From assembly GCA_041946805.1 (NCBI GenBank), contig JBHGBC010000089.1, forward strand, positions 1-24,271: a stretch of 24,271 nt of DNA. The letters run 5' to 3'. Under the pieces are notes generated by a model, which saw nothing but the letters and a program-made list of their open reading frames with translations, was not told the origin of the DNA and ran no database searches. The stretch comes from a bacterium. GTDB lineage: Bacteria > Hinthialibacterota > Hinthialibacteria > Hinthialibacterales > Hinthialibacteraceae. Below are positions 9,070 through 24,098 of this stretch, piece by piece (the first letter of the stretch is position 1; the number at the start of each line of letters is the position of its first letter). The translations under genes were made by a program, and so were the position numbers.

Positions 9070-9341
9070 CCTCAGATGACTTTTTGCCGCTCCGTCAGAA
9101 CGGCGATGGGAGCGAATACAGTATCGGCGCGCCTAGTATCGCAAAAGAGTGACCGGTAGCCAACCGCGCCAACCGGAGTGATCAACGCAAATTTCCCGCC
9201 CGGAGCCTCTCGGAGCAGGTCCGGAGGAGGGAATACAGCCGGGAAGAATCCTGGGATCCGGCCGCAATGGGATCCGGGAACGAAAACCAGATTCAATATC
9301 ATGAAGGCCCATGCCGGAGGAAGCCATTTTTCCACATTCCG

Positions 9342-9367
9342 GGAACCTGGATCCCAGGGATCCCGTA
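9342..9367 (+). promoter_or_regulatory. Candidate ECF-sigma promoter (-35 GGAAC, 17 bp spacer, -10 CGTA), probably autoregulatory
   Basis: GGAAC 9342-9346 and CGTA 9364-9367, about 36 bp upstream of a TTG start with an AGGAGG ribosome-binding site. Matches the AAC/CGT ECF promoter consensus. Confidence 0.7.
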
Positions 9368-9403
9368 TATACCAGCGTATGGGGATCACAGGAGGGCGAG
9401 TCT

Positions 9404-9946
9404 TTGATCGAGGAATGGGTGGAGCAATGCCGCAACGGCCAGACGCGGGCGTACGCCCAGGTCGTGCAAGCCATGCAAAACCGGATCCTGGCCTTTCTCT
9501 TCCGGATGACCGGCAACCGCGAGACGGCGGAAGACCTCGGCCAGGAAGTGTTCCTGCGGGCCTACCGGCAACTTCACCGCTACGATCGAAAAAAAGCCGC
9601 TTTCTCCACCTGGCTGTTCACCCTGGCCCGGAACCTGTGTCTCGACGCGATGCGCAAGAAGCAGGCGGTTTGCGTGCCGTGGGACGAATCCGGCGGGGTG
9701 GACATCTGCCCGGATCCCAATCCGAGCGCGCGTCTCTACGAACAGGAACTGGAAAGACGGGTTGCCGCCTCGGTCGGAAGCCTCGATCCGGAGTACCGGG
9801 AAGTGTTCATCCTGCGGGAATATGAACAACTCCCGTTGGAGGAAATCAGCCAGGTCACGGGATGCCCGGTAGGAACGGTGAAATCCCGCCTGCACCGCGC
9901 GCGGCTGTTGTTGCAGGAAAAACTGACGCCGATTCTCAATCTTTAA
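9404..9946 (+). CDS. ECF RNA polymerase sigma-70 factor (SigW/RpoE-like)
   Basis: Region 2 (AEDLGQEVFLRAY, FSTWLFTLARNLCLD) and region 4 (LREYEQLPLEEIS...GTVKSRLHRAR). Start revised to TTG 9404 (AGGAGG at 9390-9395); the ORF-track start at 9311 would overlap the promoter. Confidence 0.93.
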   Translation: MIEEWVEQCRNGQTRAYAQVVQAMQNRILAFLFRMTGNRETAEDLGQEVFLRAYRQLHRYDRKKAAFSTWLFTLARNLCLDAMRKKQAVCVPWDESGGVDICPDPNPSARLYEQELERRVAASVGSLDPEYREVFILREYEQLPLEEISQVTGCPVGTVKSRLHRARLLLQEKLTPILNL

Positions 9947-9958
9947 GAGGGAAACAGA

Positions 9959-10528
9959 ATGAACAAGATTTGCCGGCAATATCAGGAATCGTATGGAGAG
10001 CCCCTCCTGCCGGAATCGACGCGGGAACACGCGTCCGTTTGTCCCGCCTGCCAGGAATTCACCCGGCGGCAGCAAGCGCTGGAAGCGAAGCTTCCCGCGT
10101 GGACCCCACCGGATTTTTCGCCGGATTTCACCCTGGCGGTGATGTCCCGCCTGGCGGAAGAGAAACAACACCCGGAAGGACTCGGCGCGAGACTCCGGCA
10201 TTGGATCCATATCCGGATCCCGGTTCCCTTGCCGGCCGGAGCGCTGGCTTCGCTGGTCTTGTTGATTTCCTTGGGGCTGAATATGTTCTTCTGGAGCCGC
10301 GAACAAGCCGGTCCTCGCGATACGCCCGCCGTCGCTCAGATTCCGGAAGCGTTTCCCACGCCGGTGGTAATGCAAACCAGCTTTCCGGCATCCTGGCCAC
10401 GGAGAGATTTCTTCAGTACAGGCGCTTTTTTGCTCATCCCTCTGGGTGACGTCCACTTCCCGATGGACTCCGGGGAGGCGCTCTCCATCCCCGGCAATGG
10501 GAACGCGCGGCCCAGCCAAGCGTATTGA
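9959..10528 (+). CDS. Zinc-binding anti-sigma factor (ZAS/zf-HC2 type), single transmembrane helix
   Basis: C5 plus HxxxCxxC (HASVCPAC); PPDF..AVM; TM segment ALASLVLLISLGLNMFFW. Starts 12 bp after the sigma gene with a GAGGG ribosome-binding site. Confidence 0.88.
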   Translation: MNKICRQYQESYGEPLLPESTREHASVCPACQEFTRRQQALEAKLPAWTPPDFSPDFTLAVMSRLAEEKQHPEGLGARLRHWIHIRIPVPLPAGALASLVLLISLGLNMFFWSREQAGPRDTPAVAQIPEAFPTPVVMQTSFPASWPRRDFFSTGAFLLIPLGDVHFPMDSGEALSIPGNGNARPSQAY

Positions 10529-10639
10529 TCACCGCGAGGCCGGAAAAGCAGGAGGGATTTCACGCGTGGTACGTTGAGAATGCAGAACATTCTCGGGGCT
10601 TTATTTGTTGGATGCGCCTTGATGGGGTTCCTGAAAGAT

Positions 10640-10683
10640 CCCCTCTCCCCCTGGGAGGGTTAGGGTGAGGGAAGCCCGGAAGG
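10640..10683 (-). repeat. REP-like repeat family B (CCCTCACCCTAACCCTCTCCC...GGGAGAGGG), reverse orientation, slightly shortened
   Basis: cccctctccccctgggagggttagggtgagggaagcccggaagg; shares the flank gaagcccggaa with the copy at 17583. Confidence 0.8.
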
Positions 10684-10873
10684 ATGGAATTCATCTTTTC
10701 TCTGTAAAGGAGTAAACAGTTACATTGAACAATGAAAGCCCGCTGACGAAATCATTGTTTCCTTTCCATCAGGGAGACCGCCGGGGTGTGGGCATTTTCT
10801 AAGCGCGAACCAAGGTGTCCGCCCGGATAGGATACGAGACAATCAATCCCAACAAAGGAAGGAGAACCAAATC

Positions 10874-12289
10874 ATGAAAAGAACCGCAATCCTGGCAAGT
10901 TGTCTGATGGTGGCGCTGGCGGGTTCGATGGCCTTCGCGGAGGACACGGAGCTGCGCGCCAAGGTGGAGGCCTTCTACCAAAAACTGGACCGGGCCACGG
11001 AAACCGAAAACCTGGATGAGTTCATGTCTTGCTTCACGCCGGATTATATGGAAGCGTGGGCGGGACCTAACCGGGCGCAGCTGAAGGCGATCATCACGAA
11101 GAACAACGCGGATCAGGAAAACATCACGGCGCGGCGGGAGTTCAAAAGCATCACCCGGGCGGGGAAGTTCATCCAGGTCTTGTCCCGCGTGGAGATCAAG
11201 GCGGACAAGGCCGGGGGCGGAAAGCACGAGATGAATCTGGATGAAGTCCAGTTCCTGATCCCGGACGGCGATTCGTTCAAAATTCAGAGCCGGGCCAACG
11301 CCAAACCCGAACAATACGCCAAATATCAGGGAAATACTTGCATGGACGACATCACCGGGATCCAATTTTCCGTACCCGAGGGCTGGGTATTGGTCCCGGG
11401 CGCCCATCCCTACATGCAGGGCGTCACCTTCATGCTCGCGCCGGACGGGACCAGCGCGGCCATGTTCGGTTACCTGGAGTTGCCTTCCAACCTGGGAGCG
11501 AAAGAAGGCCTGGAAGGTGACGACGCGGTCTGCAAAACCGTCGCCAAGGATTTCGAAAAGTTTCATGCCGGCGATTATACAGTGGGGAATCTCAAGGGAT
11601 ATGAGAGCATCACCCGCTTCACCATTCCCGGGGATGACCGCGACCGCAAGCGTTGGCGCGTGTATTTCACCGGCGGGGGGTTGCTGATCACGTTCAACTT
11701 CGACGCCATCCCCGCGGAAGGCTGGGACAGCGTGAAACCCGATTTTGAAAAAATCCTGGCATCCTTCTCGATGACTCCCGAAGCCCAAAAGGATGCCGCC
11801 AGCCAGGTCCGCGCCCTGACCGCCAAGGGAGAAGTGGCCGGCCAGATTTACAGCAACGACGAGCTGGGCTGCCAGATCGCCGCGCCGAAGGATTGGACGC
11901 TCAAAACCTCCACCCTCGGCTCGCAATTCAAATTCTTGGTGGATATCAATCCCCCCGCCGGCGAAAGCATCGTCCGGTTTTTGGCGGTGGACACCCAGGG
12001 TCAGGGCAGCCTGGAACAATTCATCAAGGGGGACATGGACGCGCTGAAGAAGATCTCCAAAGACGCGGAGCTCGGGGAGGTCCAGGACCTGGAACTCTCG
12101 GGGTATCCGGCCAAACTGCATGTGAGCCGTTTCGCGATTGAAGGATTGGGGAACATCAAGCGCAAGGCAGTCTATATCTTGGTGAAAAACATGCTGTATT
12201 GCATCGTCTGCGACGCCAAGCCGGCGTCCGAGTTCGACTCGGTGGAACCACACTTCGACGCGGTGATTCAATCTTTCACGATCAATTGA
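10874..12289 (+). CDS. Secreted protein: NTF2/SnoaL-like N-terminal domain plus two tandem PsbP/Mog1-like domains
   Basis: Strong RBS (AAGGAAGGAG) and signal peptide ending AFA. Two similar units begin DDITGIQFSVPEGW and NDELGCQIAAPKDW and end FEKILASFSM and FDAVIQSFTI. Fold names are inference. Confidence 0.75.
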   Translation: MKRTAILASCLMVALAGSMAFAEDTELRAKVEAFYQKLDRATETENLDEFMSCFTPDYMEAWAGPNRAQLKAIITKNNADQENITARREFKSITRAGKFIQVLSRVEIKADKAGGGKHEMNLDEVQFLIPDGDSFKIQSRANAKPEQYAKYQGNTCMDDITGIQFSVPEGWVLVPGAHPYMQGVTFMLAPDGTSAAMFGYLELPSNLGAKEGLEGDDAVCKTVAKDFEKFHAGDYTVGNLKGYESITRFTIPGDDRDRKRWRVYFTGGGLLITFNFDAIPAEGWDSVKPDFEKILASFSMTPEAQKDAASQVRALTAKGEVAGQIYSNDELGCQIAAPKDWTLKTSTLGSQFKFLVDINPPAGESIVRFLAVDTQGQGSLEQFIKGDMDALKKISKDAELGEVQDLELSGYPAKLHVSRFAIEGLGNIKRKAVYILVKNMLYCIVCDAKPASEFDSVEPHFDAVIQSFTIN

Positions 12290-12294
12290 GCTGG

Positions 12295-12366
12295 AGAGGG
12301 GCGGACCTCGATGTCCGCCCCTGTCAACATTCCCTAACCCTAACCCTCTCCCAGAGGCAGAGGGAA
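12295..12366 (+). repeat. Composite REP element: family A hairpin followed by family B
   Basis: aggggcggacctcgatgtccgcccct (about 12297-12322), then tccctaaccctaaccctctcccagaggcagagggaa (12331-12366), directly after the stop codon. Confidence 0.82.
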
Positions 12367-12416
12367 CCGGTTCCCGGTTTGATGACCGGACGAGGGCGTC
12401 AACGGATCAAATGAAT

Positions 12417-12444
12417 CTGACCATGGAGTCGAAACACCTATAAT
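12417..12444 (+). promoter_or_regulatory. Possible sigma-70 promoter for the 12463 gene
   Basis: Perfect TATAAT at 12439-12444 with CTGACC 16 bp upstream; the -35 match is weak. Confidence 0.3.
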
Positions 12445-12462
12445 CGGCTGAAAGAAACGATC

Positions 12463-13203
12463 ATGCGTTCCTCTCTTCCTCACCGTCTCTATTTCTCCAC
12501 GGGTATCCTAGCGGGAATTCTCCTCCTGTGGCCCTCGCTGAAGGTTCAAGGCCAAGCCGTTCCGGAGATTTCCGGCGAGGCGGTCCTCGAGACGGCGGAC
12601 GGCATGATCGTGGCGGGCGTCATTCAGGGCGCCAGCGGGCCGCATACCGTGCTGGCCACCCCGTTCGGCGAGTTGCGCGTGCCGGTGGACCAGATCCGGC
12701 GCATCAACGGCGATCTCTTCACGCCGGACCGGGGGATCATCCGGGAACATAATGTCACGCTCTCTCCGGACGGCGGCGCGGTGGTGGACTATTTGCAACC
12801 GGTCCCCGGCCGGGCGGAGAGCGAATCGGTCCAAATCCTGATCCAGGGAAAAGTATTGGAAATCAAAGACCTGCAGGACGATCCGCTCGCGTTCCTGTCC
12901 CAGGAATTTGACGGATTCAGCCGTTGCACGGTGCAATGGCCCCACTACCGGCTGCCGGCGGTGCGGGTCCGAACGCTGCAGCCGGAAGCCGCCATGCATG
13001 AAAACGGTCGAATACAATACATCTACCGCTACACGCCCCGCTCCGATCAAACCTTCCGGCTGAAACTGACCCTCCCCCCGGGAGCCCGCGAACTCCAAAC
13101 CTCGCCCGATCCGCTCCGCTTGAACGAAAACCAGATTCTCTGGGAACAAGCCGCGCGGCGGCAACAAAAACTGGTGTTTCAGATTTCGTACCGGCTGGAC
13201 TGA
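12463..13203 (+). CDS. Hypothetical secreted protein (small N-terminal beta module plus beta-sandwich-like region)
   Basis: Signal-like N-terminus (GILAGILLLWPSLKVQG); pattern LETADG..VAGVI...LATPFGELRVPVDQIRRI; fills the gap between repeats co-directionally with its neighbours. Confidence 0.75.
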   Translation: MRSSLPHRLYFSTGILAGILLLWPSLKVQGQAVPEISGEAVLETADGMIVAGVIQGASGPHTVLATPFGELRVPVDQIRRINGDLFTPDRGIIREHNVTLSPDGGAVVDYLQPVPGRAESESVQILIQGKVLEIKDLQDDPLAFLSQEFDGFSRCTVQWPHYRLPAVRVRTLQPEAAMHENGRIQYIYRYTPRSDQTFRLKLTLPPGARELQTSPDPLRLNENQILWEQAARRQQKLVFQISYRLD

Positions 13204-13443
13204 TGGAAATCACATTGATCCTTCACCGTGCGCTTCCCATCCACACCCTATTCACCCAGAATTAATTCGACCGCCGCGATGAAAAAAACACCCGCTTTGA
13301 GGTTGAATCAGTCGATAAATCTAGATCCAGCCGGGTCTCCGTAGTATATATGTATAGATGATAACTAGAATTTCAGCGGATTGTCATGTTTTTTCAATTG
13401 ACCTCGATGAGGTATACACTGCCAATATAGGAGGACCGAGAGT

Positions 13444-14220
13444 ATGAGGAAGCCTGTAGTAATGAAATTGGTGTTGCTGGGTTTGTTCATGGTGTTCACC
13501 GTAAGCCCTCAAGCGCAGCTGGTCAAAAAGATTAATTTTTCCGCGGCGGAAGGGTACACAGACGGCTTGCTGGCCGGTCAGCCGGCAGGCAGCGGCGCCC
13601 AATGGACCGAGGCGAGCGCGGTCCAAGGCGAAAATGTTTTCACCGTGAAGAACGAAGCCATGTTCGTTCATCCGGACGGGACCAGCGTCATTTGGTTGTA
13701 TATGCCTTTCCCCGCACAGAAGAAAAACATCATCACCGTCACCTGGGATTGGCAGTATTTCGGTCCCCCAGAAAAGAAAATGGATTTGGGTTTCACCACC
13801 ACCGACACGGTGAACTTCCTGGCCGATGGGGATCCCATGACGGTGTTCAACGAACAATGCACCCCCACCCGCATGGGCGATGTGGTCGACGCCCGCCGGG
13901 GTAACGACCTGGTCGGCGGCGGGGATTGGATCTCCGACAACGGCGTCGAGTATCGCGACGGGGTGCTGGTGCATATGCGGATGGTCGTCAACAGCACGGA
14001 TTGGGTCTTCGACGTGTACGCGCAGCGGGAAGGTGAAGAGGAAGTCTTGGTCGCGGCCGATTTTCTATTCCGGCGGGCGCCCAGCGTGGAGACCGACGGC
14101 GTGAACGCCATCTCGATGTGGCTCAACGGGGGGGATCCCGAAACCAGCGTGGTGCTGGACAACATCCTCATCGTGGGCCCCAATCCCATCACCGGTGTCA
14201 GCGATTGGAATTTGTATTGA
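13444..14220 (+). CDS. Secreted hypothetical protein, predicted beta-sandwich, ending in the tail PNPITGVSDWNLY
   Basis: AGGAGG RBS; signal peptide ending PQA; FSAAEGYTDGLLAGQP...W at the start and VVLDNILI at the end of the domain; followed by a terminator. Confidence 0.85.
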   Translation: MRKPVVMKLVLLGLFMVFTVSPQAQLVKKINFSAAEGYTDGLLAGQPAGSGAQWTEASAVQGENVFTVKNEAMFVHPDGTSVIWLYMPFPAQKKNIITVTWDWQYFGPPEKKMDLGFTTTDTVNFLADGDPMTVFNEQCTPTRMGDVVDARRGNDLVGGGDWISDNGVEYRDGVLVHMRMVVNSTDWVFDVYAQREGEEEVLVAADFLFRRAPSVETDGVNAISMWLNGGDPETSVVLDNILIVGPNPITGVSDWNLY

Positions 14221-14254: not shown

Positions 14255-14289
14255 AAGGGTGGGCGAATTCTCGTTGCCCACCCTTTTTT
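14255..14289 (+). terminator. Rho-independent terminator
   Basis: Stem aagggtgggc (14255-14264) / gcccaccctt (14276-14285) running into a T6 tract, about 35 bp after the stop, between convergent genes. Confidence 0.8.
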
Positions 14290-14312: not shown

Positions 14313-14350
14313 GGGCGGACACCAAGGTCCGCCCCTCCCAATTCCCTCAC
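14313..14350 (+). repeat. Family A REP hairpin plus truncated start of family B
   Basis: gggcggacaccaaggtccgcccctcc followed by caattccctcac; same layout as 20357-20424 and 23291-23356. Confidence 0.75.
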
Positions 14351-15303
14351 GCGCGGCCGGTTTTTTCCAGGATGGCTTTCCGGTAGAATGCGGCCGCGGC
14401 CTCGGCGATGCCTTCGGCGTCTATCTGATAATGCCGGTAGAGTTCCTTCTCGCCGCCGGATTGCCCGAAAGTGTCCAAGATCCCCCAGCGCTTGACGGGC
14501 ACGGGATGACGCTCGGCCGCCACCTCGGCGACGGCGGAACCGAGTCCCCCGATAATGGTATGGTCCTCCACGGTGAAGAGGCAGCCGGTCTCGCGGGCGC
14601 AACGGACGATCAAATCCTCATCGATGGGTTTCAGGGTATGAATATTGACCACGCGGGCGTCGATTTTTTCCGCGGCCAGTTTCTCCCGGGCTTGGAGGGC
14701 TGGCTGGACCGTGCCCCCGGCCGCGATGATCGTCAGGTCCGTGCCGGGAGCCAGTTGGACGCCTTGGCCGGGCTGAAAGGCATAATCCGGCCCGTTCACG
14801 TCCGCCAGTTTTTGCCGGGTGAGACGGATGTAGACCGGGCCGTCGTGATCGGCGGCAAACGCCACGGCCTGCTTGGTCTCGATTTCATCGGCGGGTTGCA
14901 GGACCGTCATGCCGGGGATGGTGCGCATGAGGGCGATGTCTTCCAGGCCCATCTGGCTGTGGCCGTCTTCGCCGATGCCGACGCCCGCGTGCGTGCCGAT
15001 GATCTTGACGTTGGCCTGGCTGTATCCCACTGACATGCGGATGGTGTCGAAGCGGCCGGTGATGAAGCAGGCGAAACTGCACACGAAGGGGATTTTGCCG
15101 GCGAGGGCCAGGCCCGCGCCCGCGCCGATCATGTTGGCCTCGGCGATGCCGAATTCAAAGAAGCGGTCGGGATATTTATCCGCGAAGAGGCAGGTCATGG
15201 TGGATTTGCTGAGGTCGGCGTCCAGCACCACCACCCGCGGATTCTTCGCGCCGATCTCCACCAGGGCTTCACCAAACGCTTGCCGGGTTGCTTTTGCTGC
15301 CAT
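14347..15303 (-). CDS. tkt: Transketolase, C-terminal subunit (pyrimidine-binding and C-terminal domains)
   Basis: ATRQAFGEAL, LDADLSKST, GIAEANM, GEDGHSQMGLED, GPVYIRL, TVEDH..IGGLGSAVAE; AAGGA RBS. Confidence 0.95.
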   Translation of the reverse strand: MAAKATRQAFGEALVEIGAKNPRVVVLDADLSKSTMTCLFADKYPDRFFEFGIAEANMIGAGAGLALAGKIPFVCSFACFITGRFDTIRMSVGYSQANVKIIGTHAGVGIGEDGHSQMGLEDIALMRTIPGMTVLQPADEIETKQAVAFAADHDGPVYIRLTRQKLADVNGPDYAFQPGQGVQLAPGTDLTIIAAGGTVQPALQAREKLAAEKIDARVVNIHTLKPIDEDLIVRCARETGCLFTVEDHTIIGGLGSAVAEVAAERHPVPVKRWGILDTFGQSGGEKELYRHYQIDAEGIAEAAAAFYRKAILEKTGRA

Positions 15304-15545
15304 GATGTCCTTCCGTTCTATTTCACTTTGATCCTAGATTCATTGGGTCCTGTTGAGTTTTTCCATGTTGATATAAAACAAATATATGTAACACCCAATC
15401 CGGAGGCACACTGGGTATGTGCATCACCCTCTCCGGGCTTCCCGTACATTCCTCCAGCCTTATTGTGGCGCGGGGATTTTGCCTGCGCCTCATCCCCCTC
15501 GTGGCTCGATCCACCAACGAATGCGCCAAAATCCACTCCCCGATC

Positions 15546-16379
15546 TCAGACGGCCGCCAGTTCCCGCACGGCTTTCTCCATCTGCTCGCGCGTGGGGGCC
15601 TTGCCGTGCCAGCTGACATCGTTTTCCATGAACGAAACGCCCTTGCCCTTGACTGTCTTGGCCCAGATCAACGTGGGATGTCCCTTCATCGTCCGGGCTT
15701 CGTCCAGGGCCGTCAGGATCTGTTCCAGGTCATGCCCGTTGATCGAGACGACGTTCCAATTGAACGCGCGCCACTTGGCGTCGATGGGCGTGATGGGCAT
15801 CACGTCTTCCACGTAGCCGTCGATCTGGCCGTTGTTGTTATCCAGAATCACGGTCAGGTTGTCGAGGCCGAACTTGCCCGCCGCCATCGCCGCTTCCCAG
15901 ATCTGGCCTTCCTGCGATTCGCCGTCGCCGATCAGGCAATAAACCCGCCAGGAGGCCTGGTCCAGTTTCGCGGCCAGCGCCATGCCCAGGGCGATGGAAA
16001 GCCCCTGCCCCAGCGATCCGGTGGAGGCCTCGATGGCCGCGAGCCGCGCGCGGTCGGGGTGGCCTTGCAGGGGCGAGTTCAGCTTGCGCAGCGTCATCAG
16101 TTCGGACTCATCCAAATACCCGGCCAGGGCCAGGGCGGCGTACCAAGCGGGGATGCAATGCCCCTTGGACATGATGAAACGGTCCCGCTCCGGCCATTGG
16201 GGATTTTGGGGATCATGCCGCATGACTCCAAAAAGCAGAGCGGCCACGAGATCCGCCGCCGAAAGGGATCCTCCCGGATGGCCGGAACCGGCCTCGGTGA
16301 GCATCTTCACCGCATGGATGCGGATGGCGCGCGCGCGTTCTTGCAACATGGCGATATTGCGGGTGAGCGGAAATACCAT
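15546..16379 (-). CDS. tkt: Transketolase, N-terminal (ThDP-binding) subunit
   Basis: SGHPGGSLS, RDRFIMSKGH, LQGHP, STGSLGQG, ThDP motif GDGESQEG...DNN, TVKGKGVSFME...WHG. Start set at ATG 16379 (AAGGA RBS upstream). Confidence 0.95.
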   Translation of the reverse strand: MVFPLTRNIAMLQERARAIRIHAVKMLTEAGSGHPGGSLSAADLVAALLFGVMRHDPQNPQWPERDRFIMSKGHCIPAWYAALALAGYLDESELMTLRKLNSPLQGHPDRARLAAIEASTGSLGQGLSIALGMALAAKLDQASWRVYCLIGDGESQEGQIWEAAMAAGKFGLDNLTVILDNNNGQIDGYVEDVMPITPIDAKWRAFNWNVVSINGHDLEQILTALDEARTMKGHPTLIWAKTVKGKGVSFMENDVSWHGKAPTREQMEKAVRELAAV

Positions 16380-16606
16380 GGTGGAATCCTTATGTGGAAA
16401 TATATCCAAAAATGGAGATTTTCATCGGAATGTACGGCCATTCGTCATCACAAATCCGGGAATTCCTTCGGGGAGGAAATTCTACAAAAAATACCTTTCG
16501 CCCGGCATCCCAGGCCAATGAATAAACCATAAGTTTACTCCCATGATTCGATAAAGGAAGCCGCGCGAAAGACTAGATCATCCAGCCCGGGGATCATGTC
16601 CCGGAT

Positions 16607-17221
16607 TCACAGCGCGTTGTTGATTTCGCTTTGCCGGTTGGCGGGGGTGACGCCGCCCACGATGCCGATGTCCCCGGCGCTGATAAGCCCGTTGGAGGGG
16701 TGATAAATCATCCCCTTGTTGCCCGCGCCCACGGCATACCACTCGAGGGCGGTCTGGGCCTTGTCCGGGCCGAAGCTGTAGAGGAGATAGCCTTCCGTGG
16801 ACATATCGCCCAATCCCGCGCGGCCGACCCAGGTGCTGGCGGGTTTGGCCGGGTAGTATTTAAAGCCAAAATATTTGTACGTTTTCTGCAGTTCGAAGGA
16901 CGAGCCGAAGCTGAATTTATCCGCGCCGCCGAAGGGATCGAACATGGCCACCGTGGAAATATACGCCACGGGCGTGGTCAGTTCGGTCAGTTGGCTGAGC
17001 AGATCCGGCCCCGGACCCAGGGGATAGGCGTTGCGGTCGAGGTGGTACATTTCGATGGCGTTGCCGACGGCCTTGAGGTCGCCCTTGACGCGCGCCACCT
17101 TGGCCCGCACCTGGGCGTTGAGAAAATTGGGAACCGCGATCGCGGCCAGAACGCCGATAATGGCCACAACGATCAACAATTCGATGAGGGTAAATCCGGG
17201 GGATTTCTTTTCGGGAATCAT
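16607..17221 (-). CDS. Prepilin-type N-terminal cleavage/methylation protein (GspG/type IV pilin-like), paralog 1
   Basis: KKSPG|FTLIELLIVVAIIGVLAAIAVPNF class III signal with E5; later LTTPVAY, DPF, SFGPD and YHPSNGLISAGDI. Start is ATG 17221 or the ORF-track start at 17260. Confidence 0.9.
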   Translation of the reverse strand: MIPEKKSPGFTLIELLIVVAIIGVLAAIAVPNFLNAQVRAKVARVKGDLKAVGNAIEMYHLDRNAYPLGPGPDLLSQLTELTTPVAYISTVAMFDPFGGADKFSFGSSFELQKTYKYFGFKYYPAKPASTWVGRAGLGDMSTEGYLLYSFGPDKAQTALEWYAVGAGNKGMIYHPSNGLISAGDIGIVGGVTPANRQSEINNAL

Positions 17222-17398
17222 CAGCGAATCCTTAGCTTTCCTAGGGATTGAGACTATCAAGCACGCGAATCGTATCAGGATGAATGGATCAATTTTCCAT
17301 CATTTTAAACGGTTTTCCAAGGAAGCGGGCATCATTTCGGCCTAAAGAGATGAAAAGAAGGGCGGCGTCCAATCGGAACCATCCATTTTTCACATTCC

Positions 17399-23444: not shown

Positions 23445-24098
23445 TTATTCAACCCCTCTCGAAGTGAACATGATGTCCCCTTGGCTGGCCAGGCCGTTGG
23501 TGGCGTCGTACTTGATGCCCCGGTAGGTCAGTTGAGTCGTGGAGTTGTTGGTCCCCGTCCCTCCCCAGCGGCCATCCGGCCCGATGCCTCCCAATCCCCA
23601 TTCGCCCACGCGCAGGCCCACGTTGCCATAGATATGCGCGGTCGCCAATTTGAACGAGGGAAAGTCGTGGTCTTCCCCGGGAAATTCGGGATCGTCGTCG
23701 AGATAAAAATAAGCATTGGGTGTTTGCTGGAAGGGATCGTAGGGAATGGACGTTAGGTACGCGATGGGGGATGTCAGCGGCGCGAGCACCGCCTGGCAGC
23801 TCCGCGCCTCGAAATCGGGACCGGCCCCAACCAGGTTGAAGACGCCGCGGAGGCGTTCGTGGCCGGCTTCCAGGTCGTCATCCCACCAGTCGATCAGCAT
23901 GACTCCCTTGTCGAGGCGCAGCTGCTCGATGGCCGTCCCCAGGGAGCGCATGTCGGCGTGGTTGCGGGCGATCTTGGCGCGGATCTGGGCGTTCAAAAAG
24001 TTGGGCACGGCGATGGCGGCCAGGATGCCGATGATCGCCACCACGATCAGCAACTCGATCAGCGTGAAGGCGGCTTGACGTGACATGGGATGATTCAT
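23445..24098 (-). CDS. Prepilin-type N-terminal cleavage/methylation protein (GspG/type IV pilin-like), paralog 2
   Basis: RQAA|FTLIELLIVVAIIGILAAIAVPNFLNAQIRAKIAR; LTSPIAY, DPF, GIGPD, YDATNGLASQGDI. Start is 24098 or 24086. Confidence 0.9.
   Translation of the reverse strand: MNHPMSRQAAFTLIELLIVVAIIGILAAIAVPNFLNAQIRAKIARNHADMRSLGTAIEQLRLDKGVMLIDWWDDDLEAGHERLRGVFNLVGAGPDFEARSCQAVLAPLTSPIAYLTSIPYDPFQQTPNAYFYLDDDPEFPGEDHDFPSFKLATAHIYGNVGLRVGEWGLGGIGPDGRWGGTGTNNSTTQLTYRGIKYDATNGLASQGDIMFTSRGVE

Follow-up and report, generated by a model that had tools for sequence, protein, structure and literature searches.

What does a short peptide, conserved at the very end of an exported bacterial protein and lying outside its globular domain, do for that protein? 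The question is raised by a 24,271-nucleotide stretch of DNA (contig JBHGBC010000089.1 of assembly GCA_041946805.1, C304 in our numbering; hereafter the window) from a member of Ca. Hinthialibacterota, which encodes a 258-amino acid secreted protein with such a tail. An original prediction, made from the sequence of the window, proposed that the tail is a dedicated sorting or attachment tag, possibly handled by a machine resembling a type II secretion system (T2SS). We find that the tail belongs to a class of C-terminal tags that is real, strongly selected, lineage-wide and carried by exported proteins. By analogy with known systems, we lean somewhat towards the view that it is one copy of a lineage-wide sorting or docking tag, read near its free C-terminus by a component of the cell envelope, here called the reader.

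The tail lies outside the fold of an exported protein

The gene and its product comprise the following features.

13444..14220, + strand: gene for the 258-amino acid tagged exported protein, taken from the list of open reading frames (ORFs), stop codon included (TGA, 14218-14220)
13444..13515, + strand: Sec-type signal peptide, residues 1-24 MRKPVVMKLVLLGLFMVFTVSPQA, read directly from the sequence; helix 4-17 in the structure model
13516..14178, + strand: passenger domain, residues 25-245, a concanavalin A (ConA)-like lectin/glucanase beta-sandwich according to the AlphaFold2 (AF2) model and Foldseek
14179..14187, + strand: short Pro-rich linker P246-N247-P248, of variable length in orthologues (columns 283-290 of alignment A1 are variable and gapped)
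14188..14217, + strand: ten-residue tag ITGVSDWNLY, residues 249-258, which fits a logo of 73 ORFs; W255 is invariant in orthologues

Judging from the sequence, the signal peptide is probably cleaved after MRKPVVMKLVLLGLFMVFTVSPQA and before QL; A24 and Q25 are invariant across the 15 orthologues of alignment A1, whose identities are 44-80%. The AF2 model built on this alignment has a mean predicted local distance difference test score (pLDDT) of 72 and places the last strand of the beta-sandwich at residues 235-245 (..VVLDNILIVG). The 13-residue tail PNPITGVSDWNLY (residues 246-258, encoded by 14179-14217) lies outside the predicted fold, with pLDDT values below 50 for residues 256-258, and the model rules out that it forms an integral strand of the domain. 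Sequence and model thus agree with the anatomy described in the original prediction: a Sec signal, a globular domain ending in VVLDNILIVG, a linker and a terminal V-x-D-W-x-L-Y followed by the stop codon. Foldseek matched the passenger to legume lectins, PL14 and PL36 alginate lyases and calreticulin (E about 2e-6, TM 0.4-0.5); neither Pfam nor NCBIfam gave a match to the window protein at E values up to 1.

All 14 complete orthologues keep W255, a small-hydrophobic residue at position -2 and Y or F at position -1, counted from the C-terminus, and the stretch between the last strand and the tag is variable and gapped among them. The entry for one orthologue, P0008, runs on beyond the tag. Another orthologue, with 70% identity, comes from 'Candidatus Omnitrophota bacterium SURF_12', an organism that PMC9324843 places in phylum OLB16, that is, Ca. 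Hinthialibacterota, which makes it likely that the genome of the window belongs to this phylum. Read directly, the tail contains neither a hydrophobic helix nor a basic cluster; the earlier statement that it lacks a transmembrane helix and a basic tail, and so is not a PEP-CTERM, LPXTG or GlyGly-CTERM signal, is correct.

The tag is strongly selected at C-termini across the genome

A single copy of the tag is present in the window, as had been noted. The genome to which the window belongs (G000) comprises 6.70 Mb on 315 contigs, with 58.4% G+C and a completeness of 96.8%. Gene calling with a home-made codon-usage score gave 4435 genes, which together span 84% of the DNA; a stop codon is present in 4351. 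Compared with expectations derived from the internal frequency of each pattern in the proteome, C-terminal occurrences are in excess: W-x-[LIMV]-[YF] ends 72 of the 4351 genes (1.4 expected), [VI]-x-x-W-x-[LIMV]-[YF] ends 66 (0.14 expected), [VI]-x-x-W-x3 ends 114 (8.2 expected) and [VI]-x-x-W-x4 ends 39 (8.1 expected). The 7-mer [VI]..W.[LIMV][YF] occurs 123 times in the proteome and is exactly C-terminal in 66 cases. These counts rule out a chance origin of the tag ends, and a signal at the DNA level is ruled out by tag codons that differ synonymously among the matches listed.

The logo was built from 73 carriers, obtained from 76 ORFs (called genes or ORFs of at least 300 amino acids) by dropping three short ones that lack a signal peptide and were judged to be chance matches. 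In these 73 tails, P is found at -10 in 28, T at -9 in 39 (V in 17, A in 12), P at -8 in 26, V at -7 in 61 (I in 7) and D or E at -5 in 40 (D 23, E 17); W at -4 is followed by S at -3 in 22, L at -2 in 52 and Y or F at -1 in 53 and 20, respectively. Positions -5, -7 and -9 are conserved although they are absent from the selecting pattern, and conservation does not extend upstream beyond -11. The consensus of the tag is P-T-P-V-x-[DE]-W-x-[LIV]-[YF]-COOH, about 10 residues in length, with a core, [TVA]-x-[VI]-x-[DE]-W, placed three and sometimes four residues before the free C-terminus. The window protein has T at -9, V at -7, D at -5, W at -4, L at -2 and Y at -1.

The residues that follow the core vary. 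Dozens of ORFs have a T-x-V-x-D-W core and end in L-Q, L-H, I-Q, M-W-H or similar, 16 ORFs carry one additional residue beyond [YF], and in the variant set L is found at -2 in 15 of 48 and Y at -1 in 11 of 48. Looser counts suggest about 135 carriers, or about 3% of genes. The fixed distance of 3-4 residues between the core and the end argues for a role of either the free C-terminus or a short leaving group. Three ORFs on contigs C93, C128 and C217 all end in GIDRKIYVFDSHLPSHAPGWEVYP, which resembles the tag but is one residue longer, and these near-identical copies suggest a repeated or mobile gene. Four long tagged ORFs (C65:13293-14450, C94:1382-2425, C164:882-5633 and C294:72662-74599) have atypical codon usage and fall outside the codon-usage gene calls; they may be recent acquisitions carrying the tag.

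The carriers are exported proteins of unrelated families

When signal peptides are called by a strict rule of our own, they are encoded by 51 of the 63 complete tagged genes and by 734 of the 4043 untagged ones (odds ratio 19, p 1.5e-26); a looser rule gives 61 of 67 and 1891 of 4161. A lipobox-like motif is present in one of the 73 carriers. When the last 12 residues were removed and the remaining sequences clustered by single linkage at E < 1e-5, the 73 carriers fell into 40 clusters (one of 24, one of 7, four pairs and 34 singletons). The recurrence of such ends on unrelated secreted proteins, which the original prediction had put forward, is thereby supported, with the amendment that its motif needs widening at the last residue and by an optional extra residue.

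Pfam and NCBIfam were run on the 72 carriers besides the window protein. Pfam identified CBM9 in 8, Laminin_G_3 in 7 and CotH in 4 (three of these with lamin-tail domains). It also found multihaem cytochrome c, WD40 propeller, S15 X-Pro dipeptidyl peptidase, FGE-sulfatase, FG-GAP, right-handed beta-helix (2), F5/8C with CAP and CARDB, CBM96/DNRLRE and DUF11 domains, and 36 carriers have no family at E values up to 1e-4. NCBIfam gave sub-threshold 'choice-of-anchor' X and Q matches and good DNRLRE matches within the passengers, and none of its models reaches the tail in these 72 proteins. The passengers are mostly carbohydrate-binding or surface-type proteins, Sec-exported and folded.

Neither the window protein nor any of the 72 other carriers matches a Pfam or NCBIfam sorting model, in line with the earlier suggestion of an undescribed signal. 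We found no model of the tag in either library and no description of it in the literature searched: a term search of PMC9324843 gave no mention of 'pseudopilin' or 'C-terminal', and one of bioRxiv 10.1101/2023.06.07.544157 gave none of tryptophan, Trp, Armatimonad, Hydrogenedent or Omnitroph. The tag appears to be undescribed so far. Restriction to orthologues, an integral strand and an already described domain had been named as findings that would speak against a sorting signal; none of the three was encountered.

The tag recurs in a second phylum

To map the tag, genomes were screened with the DNA pattern GTN NNN NNN TGG NNN YTN TAY TRR, which samples the V/L/Y form of the tag only, and with the reversed pattern as control; related genomes in these counts are not independent. 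The genome of the window has 31 matches (control 3). Within its phylum, which appears as a single class, 28 of 35 genomes have 10-46 matches, compared with 0-8 in the controls, and the remaining seven have 3-9. One of these low scorers, G032, has few tags and carries Arg at -3 ([VI]-x-x-W-R-[LV]-[YF]-stop), a lineage-specific variant that could help to find a co-varying reader.

Outside the phylum, 85 of 86 genomes from other families across Bacteria have 0-4 matches, which is the control level. The exception, G064, led to a second, larger phylum, in which 61 genomes were examined. Family f36 of this phylum has 6-30 matches in all 10 genomes (controls 0-3), enrichment is moderate in f99, f104, f107 and much of f101 and f98, and f93, f96, f97, f105 and f106 are mostly at background (5 matches against 1 in the control for G142 of f93; 0-4 in f97, with 4 in G143). 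With D or E required at -5, five genomes of the second phylum gave 51 matches and none in the control, and their translated tails read [ST/A]-x-V-x-[DE]-W-x-L-Y.

Relatives carry other modules in place of the tag

Sorting signals in the 'choice-of-anchor' sense are defined by C-terminal modules that replace one another on a given passenger. Such swapping is seen in two unrelated passenger families. In the first, a tagged LamG-LamG paralogue (C124, 480 amino acids) was searched against 5.8 billion proteins. Of the 130 matches, 120 homologues were listed; the canonical tag closes 29 of these and W-x-[LIMV]-[HQKR] another 8, and 11 have other or truncated ends. The remaining 72 have an extension of about 75-90 residues instead, which ends in [FY][YF]R[LV]xx(x) and joins the same LamG end as the tag, at up to about 58% identity. 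These FYR-extended proteins come from Verrucomicrobia wherever a source is named. The second family is that of the window protein, for which a profile search of 1.84 billion representatives gave 578 matches at E values up to 1e-3. Among the best 150 of these 578, short close homologues (about 255-266 amino acids) are tagged, 7 with canonical and 8 with variant ends by pattern (near-variants include P0012 and P0154), and at least seven longer homologues (P0143, P0147, P0158, P0161, P0162, P0165 and P0176) have a module ending in KFYRxxx instead. Distant, domain-level matches such as P0172 and P0179 have ends that, judged by eye, resemble the C-terminal domain (CTD) of the type IX secretion system (T9SS).

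The FYR modules of the two families align mutually. The module is about 60-90 residues long and ends in [KR]-F-Y-R-[LA]-x-x (for example P0035, P0028 and P0107). Its model (maaa001a94c38; alignment A4; pLDDT 85) is a small beta-sandwich of about six strands. Pfam and NCBIfam have no match to it, and a fold search returned generic Ig/FN3-like neighbours only (E 0.04 or worse), so that the module cannot be assigned to the T9SS-type CTDs. The FYR module may be a second uncatalogued C-terminal sorting module.

Exosortase is found in all five f97 genomes, where tag counts are at or near background, and in two of the 56 other genomes of the second phylum; two of the ten f36 genomes hold both exosortase and tag. 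The complementarity of tag and exosortase is partial. Since relatives swap the tag for other C-terminal modules, we favor a sorting or docking role, and this swapping is the main, if indirect, argument for it. The proposal of a dedicated sorting or attachment tag is in this way supported indirectly, by the module and T9SS-like ends of relatives and by the exosortase of f97, and its T2SS component is not.

Candidate readers among pilins, secretins and PDZ proteins

The sole strongly recurrent neighbour of tagged genes in the genome is a set of 119 GspG-like prepilin paralogues of about 190 amino acids, which share a near-identical N-terminal helix, the N-terminus FTLIELLIVVAIIG and a C-terminal SNG-x-x-S-x-GDI motif. 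Among the 234 genes within two genes of a tagged gene, 18 are prepilin-like compared with 6.3 expected, and the only other neighbour clusters are the window's split transketolase and a 10-member family with three neighbours. Of the 76 tagged genes, 22 have a pilin-like gene no more than three genes away (9.7 +/- 2.9 for random genes). Relative to untagged signal-peptide genes the enrichment is about 2-fold, with a pilin at +/-1 for 9 of 63 tagged and 46 of 734 untagged genes (p 0.03) and at +/-3 for 18 of 63 and 98 of 734 (p 0.002). Eleven adjacent tagged/pilin-like pairs are on the same strand, some nearly abutting or overlapping, and in the second phylum a pilin starts 87 nucleotides downstream in two of 30 fetched tag loci. 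Two prepilin paralogues are located in the window, at 16607-17260 (-) and 23445-24098 (-), the former on the strand opposite to the tagged gene and three genes downstream of it. A complex prediction for the tagged gene C146:16356-18410, pairing its last LamG domain and tail (A3, 505-685) with the globular part of the pilin-like protein encoded downstream (A2, 31-186), scored 0.00 and counts neither way.

Phyletic comparisons were extended to pilins and secretins. Each of the 61 second-phylum genomes has 29-112 N_methyl paralogues, those of tag-less families among them. With a GspD query, matches extending over the N0-N3 domains were seen in tag-less f93, f96, f97 and f105, and some tag-plus genomes have them too. 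For f36, which is rich in the tag, the matches listed in nine of ten genomes are confined to the secretin domain (the place in G145 is not listed), and in most of f101 no match covering N0-N3 was found, although a single query protein was used and absence is consequently unproven. The expansion of pilins in tag-less families, the presence of GspD N-domain matches in tag-less families and not in f36, and the modest 2-fold adjacency speak against the T2SS-like machine that had been proposed as the handler of the tag.

Eight secretin matches are present in the window's own genome; two Tad loci, one GspD/GspK locus and a PilMN/TPR-secretin locus are among them. A pilus-like operon (locus L081, C35:6310-26083) encodes a sigma-54 activator, a 656-amino acid cohesin-domain protein, a PilM-PilN fusion, a TPR protein and a 1061-amino acid secretin with N-terminal TPR repeats. 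The PDZ proteins of the genome are two S41 Ctp, three HtrA, RseP, two M61-PDZ peptidases and one PDZ-lectin protein. Candidate readers were compared between tag-rich G064, G131 and G145 and tag-less G121 and G160. The cohesin-domain protein of the PilMN/TPR-secretin locus was rejected: all five test genomes have it, as do 60 of the 61 second-phylum genomes, and the higher scores that it reaches in most tag-plus families are shared by tag-less f105 and f106. We also rejected the TPR-secretin, which has matches in tag-rich and tag-less test genomes alike (5/5). A protein combining a PDZ domain with a 3-keto-disaccharide hydrolase was not found in G064, G131 and G160 and does not discriminate.

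Comparison with known sorting signals

The tag resembles the T9SS CTD (type A, PF18962/TIGR04183, Bacteroidota) in its position at the extreme C-terminus of unrelated, Sec-exported, folded surface or secreted proteins that lack an anchor. It differs in being a flexible peptide of about 10 residues instead of a folded beta-sandwich of 70-100 residues, which agrees with the earlier remark that the tail is far too short for such a domain. PF18962, TIGR04183 and TIGR04131 gave no match on the 73 carriers; searches of the genome with SprA_N (PF14349) and PF18962 were negative but carry little weight, since both were silent in control genomes too. The systems LPXTG/sortase, PEP-CTERM/exosortase, GlyGly-CTERM/rhombosortase and MYXO-CTERM/myxosortase likewise place a short signature on unrelated signal-peptide proteins in certain lineages, and their many-to-one relation with a reader is presumed for the tag. 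These tripartite signals need a hydrophobic helix, a basic cluster and an integral-membrane enzyme, whereas 3-4 residues follow the motif in the tag. The PEP-CTERM models TIGR02595 and PF07589 do not match the window protein or the 72 other carriers, and the genome, at its completeness of 96.8%, has no match to exosortase (EpsH, PF09721; control positive in M. jannaschii). LPXTG and GlyGly elements are absent from the tail and from the 73-tail logo and have no NCBIfam match; sortase and rhombosortase genes were not searched for.

Two further classes of signal are ruled out: the C-terminal signal of type I secretion, by the Sec-type signal peptides of the window protein and 51 of 63 carriers, and the beta-signal of outer-membrane substrates of the BAM complex, by the soluble ConA-like sandwich, a tail that is not a strand and the soluble domains of other carriers. 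The peroxisomal targeting signal 1 (PTS1) is a C-terminal tripeptide read by the TPR domain of PEX5. As an analogy only, PTS1 is also very short, dependent on a free C-terminus and found on folded, unrelated proteins; it serves a eukaryotic import pathway, no homology is implied, and the TPR-bearing secretin found here does not track the tag. Terminal peptides of TcpF (Vibrio cholerae) and CofJ (enterotoxigenic Escherichia coli, ETEC) bind type IVb minor pilins. Like the tag, they are short, flexible ends of Sec-exported folded proteins encoded near pilins. Unlike the tag, which is C-terminal and present on about 100 proteins, they are N-terminal and belong to one protein in one pilus operon, and the tag is not tied to pilin expansion or GspD by the phyletic tests.

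A sorting or docking role compared with other explanations

In the sorting or docking role that we favor, the passenger would be exported by Sec, lose its signal peptide and fold in the periplasm. The flexible tail would then be read near its free C-terminus by a dedicated envelope component that, on present evidence, is not tied to a GspD-type T2SS and that would direct the passenger to the cell surface or exterior or attach it there, the tail being either kept or removed. The tag would thereby fill a role equivalent to that of T9SS CTDs or PEP-CTERM/exosortase in other phyla. A more far-reaching form of this reading, which we put at somewhat below an even chance, is that Ca. Hinthialibacterota and the second phylum have in common a new sorting pathway of diderm bacteria for which an anchorless 10-residue tag suffices. 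Its reader would then fall outside sortase, exosortase, rhombosortase, T9SS and GspD-type T2SS, and the verrucomicrobial FYR module would be a second uncatalogued signal doing the same job. Several observations weigh against a sorting role. No reader was found, and the role is deduced from analogy and position. Module swapping indicates equivalence of position but not of function, and the FYR module is in its turn uncharacterised. Tag-less f93, f96, f105 and f106 are also without exosortase, and G143 of f97 combines exosortase with 4 tag-like ends. Genes and signal peptides were called by heuristics and not by standard programs, and the signal-peptide heuristic is passed by 45 of 84 variant compared with 48 of 58 canonical ORFs; because fewer variant ORFs pass, part of the looser set is noise.

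Among the alternatives, the tag could be the substrate of a sortase-like peptidase or transpeptidase that recognises the core, releases the last 3-4 residues as a leaving group and attaches the passenger covalently to an envelope polymer or lipid. Established surface-sorting tags, those of sortase, exosortase and PorU, are mostly cleaved; sortase joins proteins to peptidoglycan and PorU of the T9SS joins them to anionic lipopolysaccharide (A-LPS). Such a substrate would fit a core that is more conserved through W than the last three residues, and an end that may be Y, F, Q, H, K, R or one extra residue at a distance that stays 3-4. We regard this alternative as unlikely, if the most serious one, given that no membrane anchor would hold the substrate at a membrane-embedded enzyme, that no candidate enzyme was found and that the strong preference for L at -2 and Y or F at -1 (52 and 73 of 73 in the set selected on these positions; L in 15 and Y in 11 of 48 variants) is unexpected in a mere leaving group. 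Docking on a T2SS or type IV pilus, for example on one of the 119 GspG-like pseudopilins, with the passenger pushed out or displayed on a fibre, would account for the prepilins that recur beside tagged genes, the same-strand pairs and the second-phylum pilin 87 nucleotides downstream. It is nonetheless improbable: N_methyl paralogues are as expanded in tag-less families, N-domain-covering GspD was found with the one query used in tag-less families and not in f36, neither the TPR-secretin nor the cohesin-domain protein distinguishes tag-plus from tag-minus genomes, and about 70-85% of tagged genes have no pilin-like neighbour.

A periplasmic PDZ protease (Ctp/Prc S41 or HtrA/DegP-DegS) might also read the tag as a C-terminal degron or a sensor ligand, and so set the lifetime of the passengers or report the export load. 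Hydrophobic or aromatic C-termini are classical ligands of PDZ proteases, and the two Ctp, three HtrA, RseP and two M61-PDZ proteins of the genome would supply the protease. We consider this very improbable, since such proteases are near-universal and the tag is confined to two phyla, the 3-keto-disaccharide-hydrolase/PDZ protein was not found in two of three tag-rich genomes, and it is not obvious why about 3% of genes, unrelated in function, should carry a degron. A classical PDZ groove is moreover disfavored because conservation is strongest at -4, -7, -5 and -2, and not at the last residue and the residue two before it, which such a groove would contact, and because the last residue is variable (Q, H, K, R and E ends are common; those in Q, H, K or R, or with one extra residue, are found in dozens of ORFs). 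The least probable alternative, to which we attach very little weight, dispenses with a protein reader: the tag would bind an envelope lipid or glycan directly, its Trp anchoring the passenger at the outer-membrane interface, or would make the passengers associate with one another. Trp and Tyr favor membrane interfaces, and surface retention would make sense for the many lectin-like passengers; ten residues with an acidic neighbour of Trp would however make a weak anchor, and interfacial partitioning explains neither the strict C-terminal distance nor the conserved T-x-V-x-[DE].

Implications for annotation of surface proteomes

C-terminal sorting signals allow genome annotation to recognise surface proteomes, and each of those described so far has led to a dedicated machine. 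The tag marks about 2-3% of the genes of a genome from an uncultured, polysaccharide-degrading phylum and recurs in a second one. Because it is too short for hidden Markov model (HMM) libraries, its carriers are now annotated as unrelated hypothetical or lectin-like proteins; with the tag as a simple criterion, the proteins that are probably at the surface or outside the cell can be listed for these organisms. For a phylogenetic search for the reader, presence of the tag is a clean phenotype, with f1, f5, f36, f99, most of f101 and G154 on the tag-rich side and f93, f96, f97, f105 and f106 on the tag-less side. If the sorting role is true, a diderm bacterium would sort folded periplasmic proteins by a signal that depends on a free C-terminus, for which we know of no bacterial precedent, and if ten residues suffice, a compact export or display tag would be possible. 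The present analysis adds a widened motif, a phyletic map with counts that includes families without the tag, the swapping of modules in two families of passengers and negative tests of T2SS, pilin, PDZ and cohesin candidates.

Genomic context of the tagged gene

One further feature follows the tagged gene.

14257..14289, no strand assigned: GC-rich hairpin and T-run, a likely terminator, read from the sequence as GGGTGGGC ... GCCCACCC TTTTTT

This putative terminator sits between the tagged gene and the convergent transketolase gene. The transketolase is split into two genes (14347-16409, -), an N-terminal part that binds thiamine pyrophosphate (TPP) and a pyrimidine-binding/C-terminal part. 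Upstream, the tagged gene is the last member of a same-strand run at 9311-14220 (+), which is possibly a sigma-controlled envelope cluster. The run contains an extracytoplasmic function (ECF) sigma factor (9311-9943, +), a 189-amino acid ORF without family that could be the anti-sigma of this ECF factor (9959-10525, +), a PsbP-like secreted protein (10874-12286, +) and a 246-amino acid ORF with a hydrophobic N-terminus and no family (12463-13200, +).

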